A DNA stretch of 63,040 nucleotides, filler included, from Reclinomonas americana ATCC 50394 (Eukaryota): assembly GCA_048213135.1 (NCBI GenBank). It is 14 parts of 14 records of this genome, joined end to end, with 100 filler letters (N's around TTAATTAATTAA, not from the genome) between each part and the next. Parts side by side here need not be neighbours in the genome. Positions count along the whole stretch, not along the records: positions 18,394 to 34,216 come from AFZH01019094.1; 13 more parts are not named here. One strand, given 5' to 3'. Made by a program: the position numbers and the translations under genes. The notes under the pieces were generated by a model. The model saw only the letters and a list, made by a program, of their open reading frames with translations. It was not told the DNA's origin and did no database searches. Below, one piece after another: positions 24,442 through 28,386 of this stretch. Each line of letters starts with the position of its first letter. The first letter of the stretch is position 1.

Positions 24442-27400
24442 ATGGGTGCAGCACAGGGCAGTGACAGGTGTGTGTGTTTGTTTCTGGTTTTCTCTTCACC
24501 TCTCTCTGACAATTGTTGTGCAGTCAACAACAGAGGTGGCAGAAAGCATGGCGGATGGCAATGGATGGCGATGTGAAGGCACTGCGCGAGTTGGTGGCGC
24601 GTGAGGGCGCACAGACAGTGCTGAAGAGAGAGGAGATGAGCTCGCATGGCGGCTCGGCATTTCACTATGCCGCTCGCTATGGCCATCTCTCTGTGCTGGA
24701 GTATTTGTGGGAGAGTGGCATTGGTCCGGAATTTGCACAGATGGTTGCCGACAATGGCTGGACGCCACTGATGGCGGCTGCCGGCAATGGGCATCTGCAC
24801 GTGGTTGAGTGGTTGCTTGCTGATGAGCGACGATGTCCACTGGAGATGGTGCAGGCGATCGACAGCATTCAGGAGACTGCACTACACTATGCTGCCGTTT
24901 GGGGCCACGAAGCCATTGTGCGACTCCTCGCCACTCGCTTTCCCGACCTCATTCCCATGGCCAACAAGAAAGGCAAGACCGCGGCTGATAGGGCACGCGA
25001 TAACGGCCATCAACAAGTGGCCGAGTTGCTCGACCGCCTCGCTGCGGAGCAACGAGCACCCCCACCACGCCAACAGCAACCACAACCTCCCTCTCCGCCT
25101 CCACCACCACAGCCACCAACAGGTGAGATCTCATTTTCGTGTTGCACACACTCCTCATTGCGTGTTTCTCTGTTTGTGTTCACCCTGCAAAAACACGCAG
25201 AGCCAGCACGCCCACAACAACGACAGCCACAAATATCCCATCTCTCTTCATCACCACCACCACCACGAGCAGCTGGTGAGATGTCAATGTCGTCTTGAAC
25301 AGATGGTTGATGTTTGCTTTTCTCCTCTCTCACAATCTCCTCGATGTTTGCTTCGCTTACTTTTCGTCTTGCAGAAAATGCATCGCCATCACGCCAGGTG
25401 ACCTGTGTTGTCTCGCTTGCGCATGGTTGTTTCTCATCGTCCGTGTTCTCTGACTCCCACCTCTCTCTCTCTCTCTCTCTCCCCTCTCTCTCCCCTCTCT
25501 CTTGTTCTGCTCTGCGCAGGTGGTCGATGACGTCACCGACAAGGACGCACTCATCGCCCAGCTCCAGCACGATCTCGCCGCAACGCAGCAGGAGCGACAG
25601 CAACAGCAGCACGAATGGGATCGACAGCGACGAGAGCACGAAGAACTTGTCACTCAGCTGCAACGAGACAATGCCGAGCTGCAGCATATCAACGCCGAGA
25701 AGCAGGAGGAGCGACAGCAGCAACAGCGAGAGTGGGATCGACACCGACGAGAACACGAAGATATCGTGGCTCAGCTGCAGCGAACCAATGCTGAGAATCG
25801 TCACACCTTAGCGGAGCAGCAACAACGAATCGATGAACTGCAGCAAGCTCAAGCTCAGAGCCAGCAACGAGTCACGGAGCTGCAGACCAGTCTCACCGCT
25901 GAACGGCAAAGAGTGCGCAACATGGAAGGCCAACTGCGCGCTCTCTTCAACATGGACTTTCTAAGGTAAATCATGCATGACTCATTCTCCCTGTTTTATT
26001 CTTGCCGTGAGTCACCTCACTCTTGGCTGCACAGTGATCGCCGTCCCATCCTGATGCTTACTGAAGTCGTTCACGAGATTATTCCCCTGGCTCTAGGGTC
26101 TCTCCTGCAACAACTCATCGCTGGTTTCTTCCCTGCCGAGTTCGACATTGAGCAACTCTGTCTCCCAGCTCCACCGTCAAGGTGCTGAGGGAGGGACAGT
26201 CTTGAATGTGTTGTGTCTCATGCGCTCATTCTGCCTCGCAGATACTGCCGAATGACTCTGGACAAGCGCGGAAACATTCGTATGCGCTCCGTCGAACTGT
26301 TCCCGTCCAACTACGAGACAATTCGAGAGCTCAAGCGGAGTGGAGTGACTTCGGGCATGGACGTGTCGCTGCTGAGCGCACTGCTGTTGTACACAACATT
26401 TGTTCCTGTCACCGCTTGTCGAGATGAGGATCTGATGGAGAGCCTCGTCCGCCTCGATCATGACACGAACGAAGACCATGTTGCTGTGCGACTTCTCGCT
26501 GACCCTGCCATGGTATGCTCTCTGCTTGTGTATTGTCGTCGACGAGTGTTCTCAAGGCCAGTCTGCTCGCAGATTCGAGCCGTGGAGAACTTGCGAGACG
26601 TGCGTCATCGTGTGTCTCACCTGGCCCGACTCTCTGCACTCGAAGACGCAGAGTATGTGAGCGTTATGCGTCTGGTTCGTGACTCGCTTCACACGCTGTT
26701 TCCCGACGGGCAGCATGAGAGTATGCGACTTCTGTTCCAAGCATACGAGAGTTGCGACATCATTTGCCCACTTACTGTCTTCATTCTCTCATCTACTCTC
26801 CTTCGGCGCAGATGTGTGTCGCATTAATGTGACGGCCGAGCTGGTGACGGAGAGAGCATCGCGATTCGCTATTCGCGCCCCAGTTGTGTCGTTCTCCGAC
26901 TTGACGCCTTCAAGACAACTTGCTATTGGTGTGCTCCTCTGCGTACGCAAGCATCGCTGTGTGAATGGGCAGGAGCTCATCTCCTCCATTTGCCACTGCA
27001 GGTCAACATGCTGTCTTCCATGCCTCTCTCCGTCTCGGCGGTATGTCGCAGACCGTGGCGTACAAGCGATATCTGGTCAGGAGGCAAGCTCGAGATGCGC
27101 AATCGGCGGACTGGAAACGCATTCACGAGAGCTTCGAGAACGAACACTCTCTGCTGATGCAACTCGAGTTGCGTGCATTCCTGATCATGCACTGAATATC
27201 TCCTGTCACTCATTCGCGTACACACAGTCACCCACACATTGTGAAACTGATGGCTGTGTGCAACGACGACCCGAGTGGTCTCGGTCTCGTTCTTGAATAT
27301 GTCGGTCGTGAGGATGAAGAGGAGGGCATTGCCGAGACGCTGCACGACTTGGTGAAGGATGAACACGTGACGACTCAGGACCTGCTCAGTTTGCTCGTAC

Positions 27401-28386
27401 AAGTGGCATCAGCGGTGGTGCACATGCACTCGTGTCGAGTGGTGCATCGTGATCTGAAGCCGCAGAGTTGCGTCTTGGGGAGCGCAAAGGGAGAGAGTAA
27501 GAGAAGAGGATTATGAGATGTTGATGCAAGAGAAGATGAGAGGAAGAGAGAGACAACCAGGCGAGTGCGGTCTGTGTGCTTGTGCAAGTGGCTTCAGCGG
27601 TTGTGCGCACTCTCGTCGAGTGGTGCATCGCGATCTCAAGCCACAGAGTTTCATTTTGGAGTGGGTGATGGGAGAGCGAGACTACAAGAGAGAAGGATTA
27701 TGGCATGTTGATGCAACAGAGTGGATGTGAGAGAGAGGGCAGTGGAGCATCTTCCAGATCAATCACTTGCTTCTTTATCTGCTGACTCTGTTCCCATTGC
27801 TTGTCCACAGACATACTCGTCAGCGAGGACCGACTCATGGCCAAGGTGTGCGACTTTGGTGAGGCCAAGATTCACGGCACACTTGGCAAGATGCAGTCGA
27901 ACCACGGCACGGCAGCGTATGCTGCACCCGAGGCCATGTTGGATCAAGAGGTGCACTGATGACATTCTCTTCTCTTGCTGAGTGGTGTTCGCTCATGGAT
28001 TCCTTCACCACTCGCAGTACGACGAAAGGGCGGATGTGTATGGACTTGGCTCGCTGCTCTGGTTCATCGCCACTCGTCAAGAACCGTTCAGTGGAGTGAC
28101 GCTGCAGGCGATTCTGCATTCCATGCGTACGAGCATTCCACCCGCCGATCTTGACGATGAGGGTGTGCGAGCTGCCGTGCCGGAGGATGTTCGCAATCTG
28201 ATTCGGCAGTGCTGGGTTGCGCTCTGAATCAGTAGATCGTGTTGCTGGGAGAGGTGGCTTCTCATTGTGCGTGTGATACAGAGGCCACAAGCAACACGCG
28301 CGTCGGCATCGTATGTGCTGGACGAGCTGTGGCGCTTAAGCGAGGCTGCAGAGGGAGGAGCAGGACCGGCTGGGCCTTCACAGTGA
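24442..28386 (+). CDS. Putatively myristoylated ankyrin-repeat / Pro-rich / coiled-coil / HEPN-like RNase / TKL-like protein kinase
   Basis: Frame-consistent exons: 24442-24467, 24524-25122, 25201-25275, 25375-25397, 25520-25965, 26035-26181, 26242-26512, 26573-26750, 26812-26928, 27002-27167, 27228-27466, 27811-27950, 28018-28215 and 28282-28386. The HEPN-like segment reads MDVSLLSALL...IRAVENLRDVRHRVSH...LEDAEY. Kinase motifs are VAYK, FENE, HPHIVKL, HRDLKPQN, DFG, GTAAYAAPE, DVYGLG and CW. Confidence 0.82.
27582..27750 (+). pseudogene. Degenerate intronic duplicate of the kinase catalytic-loop exon end and adjacent intron
   Basis: Copy of ~27398-27560 (VQVASAVV...VVHRDLKPQ) with a frameshifting deletion. 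The donor GTTGCG is changed to GTTTCA. Confidence 0.8.

Follow-up and report, generated by a model that had tools for sequence, protein, structure and literature searches.

Ire1 and RNase L, in which a kinase is coupled to a HEPN RNase, are central stress and antiviral switches. In both proteins a kinase or pseudokinase comes first and is followed by KEN, a circularly permuted HEPN RNase, and RNase L has ankyrin repeats at its N terminus in addition. Here we describe a gene at positions 24442 to 28386 of a 63,040-nucleotide stretch of DNA from Reclinomonas americana ATCC 50394 (assembly GCA_048213135.1; this whole stretch is called the window in the following). Its predicted product combines ankyrin repeats, a long charged helix or coil, an all-alpha domain of about 200 residues and a Ser/Thr protein kinase in a single chain. 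The features for which coordinates are given below lie on the plus strand, and positions count along the window. A preliminary description of the locus had called the product an RNase L-like protein with a permuted domain order and had placed a HEPN-type RNase between the coil and the kinase. Our analysis suggests that the helical domain most likely belongs, as a very divergent member, to the HEPN superfamily and is nearest to the DZIP3/Swt1-type eukaryotic HEPN domains, with an R-H-x3-H motif of the catalytic type.

The HEPN superfamily has been defined as an up-down bundle of four helices, with an insert separating helices 2 and 3 (PMC3710099, Anantharaman et al. 2013). According to the part of that survey available to us, its members carry the motif Rx4-6H, in which the residue after the arginine is polar and mostly N, D or H, and also, in helix 2, another acidic residue that is often within Ex3[KR]. 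An intact Rx4-6H motif is taken there as the mark of active RNases; several HEPN families are inactive or bind substrates, and the HEPN domain of eukaryotic Swt1 is possibly inactive. The same source describes a fusion of KEN, kinase and ankyrin repeats, and it reports lineage-specific expansions of DZIP3-type HEPN domains in Nematostella, oyster and Capsaspora. Its Table 1, as far as it was accessible, already includes the fusion of a DZIP3-type HEPN domain to ankyrin repeats, and a kinase is not among the fusion partners given there for this type. HEPN RNases have also been described as variable effector domains beside ankyrins in animal immune expansions (PMC8195603, Kaur et al. 2021), where the available description of the HEPN effectors contains no kinase fusion.

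Gene model and candidate HEPN domain

Exons were joined by coordinate, from sequence alone, and the splice model is a predicted one. It consists of 14 exons (24442-24467, 24524-25122, 25201-25275, 25375-25397, 25520-25965, 26035-26181, 26242-26512, 26573-26750, 26812-26928, 27002-27167, 27228-27466, 27811-27950, 28018-28215 and 28282-28386), which give a spliced ORF of 2730 nt, a single open frame of 909 amino acids that ends with a TGA stop at 28384-28386. All 14 exons are open, with neither a frameshift nor an internal stop, and a 212-codon open frame extends across exons 7 and 8. Each of the 13 introns has GT..AG ends, and 12 of them are 56 to 122 nt long; this is coding DNA of a eukaryote, in which the introns are short. 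The 14 exons in one frame that the preliminary description had announced are confirmed at the level of the open frame, and the gene is real and probably intact. Intron 11 (344 nt) exceeds the other 12 introns by far in length because it holds a decayed tandem copy of about 187 nt, in which the last part of exon 11 and the first part of the intron are repeated (82% mean column identity). The resulting decayed pseudo-exon (27566..27770, repeat families D9 and D12) has a 4-nt deletion relative to exon 11 that breaks the frame.

Some details of splicing are worth recording. The unusual donor GTTGCG is used by 4 of the 13 introns (26751, 27168, 27467 and 28216), always after A or G, and may be a lineage-typical variant. 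Intron 5 is of typical size (69 nt); its donor, GTAAAT, is canonical, and it has a pyrimidine tract as well as a CAG acceptor. Just past the exon 5 donor lies an in-frame TAA stop at 25967-25969, unspliced, which had been pointed out before and is indeed present in the sequence. An ATG 4 nt past this stop, at 25973, shares the frame of exon 6, and retention of intron 5 could in principle allow a separate product with the helical domain and the kinase to be read from there. Retention of intron 7 would keep the frame open; it was rejected, since this intron has a typical length of 60 nt and GT..AG ends.

The predicted protein starts with a sequence of the N-myristoylation type and would continue with the ankyrin repeats, a Pro-rich linker, a charged helix or coil of about 150 residues, the all-alpha domain of about 200 residues and the kinase. 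The domain before the kinase is an orphan all-alpha domain (residues 390 to 588; 26035..26750) encoded by exons 6 to 8 and interrupted by introns at 26182-26241 and 26513-26572, which we consider a candidate divergent HEPN. Translation and motif scans located three elements within it: D479 of GMDVSLLSALL (26360..26362), the Ex3[KR] motif E505-S-L-V-R509 (26438..26452), which lies 35 residues before R540, and R540-H541-R-V-S-H545 (26603..26620), an Rx4H motif in which the arginine precedes a polar residue. The motif is followed directly by LSALEDAEYVSVMRLVRDSL. The aspartate of GMDVSLLSALL, the R-x4-H motif and the segment after it had all been quoted in the preliminary description, and each was found where it had been placed.

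How do these elements compare with the HEPN definition? R540-H541-x3-H545 agrees with both the Rx4-6H spacing and the polar-residue rule in the accessible part of the survey (PMC3710099). E505-x3-R509 fits the upstream Ex3[KR] motif defined there, with the reservation that its placement in a helix comes from a model with a pLDDT of 40 and that the motif is common in this protein. The assignments of D479 and E505 to HEPN positions are uncertain. In 20,000 shuffles of the 199-residue domain, R[NDH]x3H appeared in 7.8% and D[IV][ST]LL in 0.5%; both together, D[IV][ST]LL and R[NDH]x3H at a spacing of 30 to 90 residues, were seen in 6 of 100,000 shuffles. The order of helices in an AF2 single-sequence model, although of low confidence (pLDDT 40), is a helix with D479, a helix with E505..R509, an insert, a long helix ending in R..H, a loop and a further helix. 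This order is compatible with the H1-H2-insert-H3-H4 arrangement in the available text of PMC3710099.

Searches of families and of language-model features pointed in the same direction. The domain was queried either as single exons or as a read-through of 26243-26749, which comprises exon 7, the open 60-nt intron 7 and exon 8 and encodes 169 residues. With the read-through query, the sole Pfam family at E<=10 was HEPN_Swt1 (E 0.14, 12.8 bits, versus a cutoff of 27.5 bits). Among 30 ESM-Atlas feature neighbors, 12 were of the HEPN_DZIP3 set, 5 carried DUF4559 and 1 carried both. The top scores were 0.94 and 0.93, with 190 to 191 of 256 features in common, and the nearest clusters were eukaryotic, from molluscs and cnidarians; a bacterial HEPN_Swt1 cluster was also among the neighbors (score 0.89).

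The flanking domains and the tandem paralog

Exon 1 (24442..24467) contains the start codon and encodes MGAAQGSD, which matches the expression MG[^EDRKHPFYW]xx[STAGCN][^P]; we take this to be the PROSITE-type pattern for N-myristoylation. Exon 2 (24524-25122) encodes the ankyrin repeats (24555..25040), which match Pfam Ank_2 in three stretches with an E-value of 1.4e-35; Ank, Ank_3, Ank_4 and Ank_5 also match, and the repeats belong to the ankyrin family by this measure. According to the translation, a Pro/Gln-rich linker follows (25041..25397), which spans the last part of exon 2 as well as exons 3 and 4, with introns 2 and 3. Exon 5 (25520..25965) encodes a Q/E/R-rich, charged helix of 148 residues with an internal 117-nt repeat (family D1). 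It contains no proline and a single glycine. Coiled-coil families of Pfam match it only weakly (E 0.0045-0.67), and the heptad signal is clearest in its last 50 residues or so. Hence, we predict a long helix that is in part a coiled coil, the middle of which is possibly a single alpha-helix.

The Ser/Thr protein kinase domain begins in the last part of exon 9 and reaches into exon 14 (26919..28341). Single exons matched Pkinase in Pfam, with E-values of 2.3e-12 for exon 11, 2.7e-6 for exon 12 and 5e-3 for exon 13. We found the motifs VAYK at 646-649 (with the codon of K649 at 27064-27066), HRDLKPQN at 756-763 (from 27445, with the codon for N split across intron 11), DFG at 777-779 (27852-27860) and APE at 801-803 (27924-27932). 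The protein thus combines the profile match of a eukaryotic protein kinase with the beta3 lysine, HRDxKxxN, DFG and APE. Judged by these motifs, the catalytic loop, DFG and APE are intact and the Gly-loop is degenerate. The single GxGxxG match of the whole protein is located in the C-terminal tail, and an alternative acceptor for intron 9 that might restore the Gly-loop was rejected because it shifts the frame. The ankyrins, the coil and the kinase of the preliminary description were all borne out by Pfam and motifs, the coil in the form of a long, proline-free charged helix or coil. A sequence search of the PDB with exon 11 had IRE1 (E 1.3e-5) as its top match, indistinguishable from CDK6 (E 2.3e-5), and does not classify the kinase. 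A homolog search with the same exon found one bacterial dual-kinase protein with 30% identity, which matches in the kinase only and is uninformative on the architecture. Past the kinase, exon 14 encodes only 34 residues, for which there was no Pfam match.

A tandem paralog is situated upstream, at 20893..23892. It also starts with MGAAQGSD and has ankyrin repeats, a Pro-rich linker, a coil and a kinase with an HRDIKPAN-type motif, a type of entry motif which presumably recalls the IRAK/Pelle/RLK kinases. Pfam matched Ank_2 (E 1.8e-19) and Pkinase (E 5.6e-9 and 1.6e-7) in the paralog. In its open frame the coil is followed immediately by a different kinase, and there is no helical domain. Because the frame continues in this way, the paralog supports the view that ankyrin, coil and kinase form one polypeptide in this family. 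In tblastn searches with the gene model, the ankyrin and coil parts were the only ones found in the paralog at E<1e-3, with 74% amino acid identity in the ankyrin part and 44% in the coil; by this comparison, the kinases of the two genes are no more alike, as far as can be detected, than generic kinases are.

At the nucleotide level, the duplication covers 20716-22082 and 24233-25682 with 80 to 92% identity. It reaches from the upstream region through exon 1 and the exons for the ankyrin repeats and the Pro-rich linker into the start of the coil, introns included. Exon 1 is identical in both copies (26/26 nt). We read the 5' half of the gene as a recent tandem duplicate of the upstream gene. 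The ankyrin exons are 83% identical, with a dN of 0.17 and a dS of 0.35, and the dN/dS of about 0.5 argues that this exon is under constraint. The flanking introns 1 and 2 are 92 to 93% identical between the copies. The introns are thus more alike than the synonymous sites. This pattern suggests gene conversion in patches, a rapidly evolving ankyrin surface, or both. We hypothesize that module swapping produced the pair, such that a duplicated 5' module consisting of promoter, exon 1, ankyrin, linker and the start of the coil was joined to two different 3' modules. As aligned, a single sensor-type module is connected to two effector halves in the tandem pair, and the pair would record the reuse of the sensor module (ankyrin and coil) with different effector halves.

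The other neighbors in the window are ordinary; by Pfam, they encode an ABC transporter, a lysine methyltransferase, an RRM protein, a RasGEF, a class I-type PI3K, an RFC subunit and a GNAT protein. The RasGEF-domain gene and, after it, the class I-type PI3K (PI3K_C2, E 4.7e-21; PI3_PI4_kinase, E 1.3e-16) occupy 35000-45700. Long Thr/Ser/Asn-rich open frames at 53560-57135 follow a signal peptide-like start around 53950 and resemble repeat proteins that are secreted or exposed at the surface. Several N gaps and numerous microsatellites (CT/GA/GT) occur in the window.

Weighing the HEPN reading

A number of observations weigh against a HEPN RNase, and we give them together here. R-x4-H alone turned up in 52% of the 20,000 shuffles and is not significant; Ex3[KR] occurs 10 times in the whole protein, hence is weak alone; and the DZIP3-type pattern pair came from no tool and was picked post hoc with the sequence in view. 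The read-through query includes 20 intron-encoded residues, which weakens every domain search, and the HEPN_Swt1 alignment (query residues 79-134) crosses these 20 residues. With its 12.8 bits falling below the cutoff, there was no significant profile match to any HEPN family. A Pfam comparison with HEPN_DZIP3 had been proposed as a check in the preliminary description, and this family (PF18738) gave no match at E<=10 for the read-through or at E<=1 for single exons; no other Pfam family matched the single exons of the domain at E<=1 either. PADLOC and NCBIfam returned no family for the helical domain, and the PDB sequence searches returned noise (PCNA, E 3.9; PYK2 FAT, E 0.62; XPF, E 0.8). 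AlphaFold, also proposed as a check, gave no usable fold from the read-through query; with a mean pLDDT of 40.3 and a pTM of 0.30 the AF2 model is unusable as fold evidence or for a fold search. The Atlas recognition value was 2122, below the level of 2300 under which a high score counts as weak. HEPN_DZIP3 or DUF4559 is carried by 11 to 38% of the members of the listed clusters, the consistency measure (3 of the ten best matches with a family) was flagged as "probably wrong," and exon 7 alone had no usable match among the named clusters. In the kinase, no GxGxxG loop was found, residues 628-633 being G-Q-H-A-V-F. Finally, we know of no RNase activity for any DZIP3-type HEPN domain.

The searches for relatives of the domain belong to the same side of the balance. 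A word-indexed set of 5.8 billion proteins yielded 744 candidates that were scored, none with an E-value of <=0.01, and a second search yielded 68, none at E<=10. There were no matches at E<=0.001 with phmmer among 1.84 billion cluster representatives, and no helical-domain matches in viral contigs or prokaryote genome contigs. When the spliced domain was compared by phmmer --max with the 1153 ORFs of at least 30 residues in the window, it found only itself, and thus no second copy in the window. One locus from a scan of metagenome contigs was rejected as a chance match of 17 residues on a contig with 30% GC and long uninterrupted ORFs. These searches yielded no homologs that could provide data on the conservation of R and H for the HEPN reading.

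What, then, could the helical domain be if it is not an RNase? It could be a lineage-specific all-alpha regulatory or adaptor domain outside the HEPN superfamily, for example, an autoinhibitory or dimerization domain, a Death-fold-like domain or an MLKL-like bundle, in which case R-x4-H would be there by chance and phosphorylation would be the sole catalytic output of the protein. We regard this as possible but doubtful. It would account for the failure of every HEPN model of Pfam, HEPN_DZIP3 included, to reach its threshold, for the frequency of R-x4-H in shuffled sequences, for Atlas evidence that is weak by the criteria of that tool and disappears with exon 7 alone, for a paralog that makes do with ankyrin, coil and kinase, and for the lack of detectable relatives of the domain. 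However, with the read-through query Pfam reported only HEPN_Swt1 at E<=10 and no Death, CARD, MLKL-type or other helical family, and the three weak signals, namely, the motif set, HEPN_Swt1 and the 18 of 30 Atlas neighbors together with the HEPN_Swt1 cluster, point to one superfamily among about 24,700 Pfam families. A true HEPN fold might also exist without RNA cleavage, as an RNA-binding or dimerization module that regulates the kinase, like the inactive HEPN domain of Swt1 or the non-catalytic ones attached to nucleotidyltransferases. Several HEPN families are of this inactive or substrate-binding kind in the part of the survey at hand, the best Pfam lead is to the Swt1 type, which is possibly inactive in eukaryotic Swt1 (PMC3710099), and neither D479 nor E505 can be assigned firmly. 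We nevertheless consider an inactive HEPN improbable, because the arginine, the histidine and the polar residue after the arginine are all present and an intact motif marks active RNases according to the same text (PMC3710099).

A further explanation concerns the gene model. The locus could be a decaying duplicate, or it could comprise two genes, one for ankyrin and coil that ends with the TAA at 25967-25969 and one for the helical domain and the kinase that starts at the ATG at 25973 or at M397. The stop past the exon 5 donor and the ATG in frame with exon 6 would allow this, the exon joins are predicted from sequence alone, the locus has seen a recent duplication and contains a decayed exon copy in intron 11, and the Gly-loop is degenerate. 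Still, we judge such an error very improbable. Intron 5 has all the hallmarks of an intron (GTAAAT donor, pyrimidine tract, CAG acceptor, 69 nt), a second gene that starts 4 nt past the stop would lack a promoter region, coil and kinase share one frame in the paralog, all 14 exons are open and the dN/dS of about 0.5 indicates a constrained ankyrin exon.

The HEPN claim of the preliminary description thus stands in part. The motif rule, the HEPN_Swt1 hit below threshold and 18 of the 30 Atlas neighbors speak for it, and the lack of any HEPN family at its Pfam cutoff and of homologs speaks against it. We lean slightly towards a HEPN fold for the helical domain. That the domain is an active RNase is a tentative proposal, to which we give somewhat less than an even chance. 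The best explanation for the locus as a whole, an intact 909-residue gene with a very divergent HEPN RNase domain that arose with module swapping, is likewise put forward tentatively, as a reading that may well turn out to be wrong.

If the HEPN reading holds, the following mechanism can be imagined. The ankyrin repeats would bind a ligand or partner at the membrane, and the coil would join two or more chains. The HEPN-like domains paired by the coil would then form a composite, metal-independent RNase site, and the kinase domains brought together would phosphorylate each other in trans, such that a single sensing event would lead to both RNA cleavage and phosphorylation. In its most complete form, this hypothesis describes a dual-enzyme effector that a unicellular-type eukaryote built independently of RNase L and Ire1 from a myristoyl anchor, an ankyrin sensor, a coil and a DZIP3-like HEPN RNase placed before a kinase, with both enzymes activated by clustering at the membrane and with the sensor shuffled onto alternative effectors as in animal immune expansions. 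We consider this complete scenario unlikely.

Comparison with known systems

If the helical domain is not a HEPN, the gene would encode an ankyrin-kinase of an ordinary, lineage-specific kind that carries an orphan helical insert. ILK, TNNI3K, RIPK4/ANKK1 and DAPK, as we take it, likewise have ankyrin repeats and a kinase in one chain; we know of none among them with a coil and a HEPN-like domain between the two. The upstream paralog shares exon 1, the ankyrin module, the Pro-rich linker and the start of the coil with our gene and differs from it in that the coil leads straight into the kinase, without the helical domain.

The DZIP3/hRUL138 type (PF18738, HEPN_DZIP3; overlapping PF15112, DUF4559), which is expanded in cnidarians, molluscs and Capsaspora, is among the described systems closest to our protein. 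Both have a predicted all-alpha domain with R-[polar]-x3-H, and clusters with HEPN_DZIP3/DUF4559 are the nearest language-model neighbors. The locus also belongs to a pair that was recently duplicated and swaps modules, a feature typical of lineage-specific expansions. Unlike members of this type, the domain has no PF18738 match and no detectable sequence homolog. A fusion of the DZIP3 type to ankyrin repeats has been reported (Table 1 of PMC3710099). No description of a protein with ankyrin repeats, coil, HEPN and kinase was found in the HEPN/DZIP3 literature within the portions covered here; the family architectures of PMC3710099 lie outside this comparison, so a kinase fusion is possible there.

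With RNase L and Ire1, the protein would share, if the HEPN reading holds, a kinase fold and a HEPN-superfamily RNase in one chain, and with RNase L also the ankyrin repeats; activation by self-association is plausible here as well. The differences are considerable. The order is reversed, with the helical domain N-terminal to the kinase, the protein has a long coil, its kinase keeps HRD, DFG and APE without a Gly-loop, and neither a 2-5A nor a lumenal sensor is evident. Moreover, no Pfam match to KEN (Ribonuc_2-5A) was reported for any exon. Because of the missing KEN match and the reversed order, the protein does not belong to the RNase L/Ire1 family, and a HEPN domain at this place would be of the DZIP3/Swt1 type rather than a KEN. 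The likeness to RNase L in the earlier label is one of analogy only. Should the HEPN reading prove true, the gene would give experiments a first way to find out whether HEPN domains of the DZIP3 type are RNases at all. It would also represent, next to Ire1 and RNase L, a second, independently assembled kinase-HEPN protein that uses another HEPN family in the opposite order, which would make the coupling of a kinase to a HEPN RNase a recurrent design.

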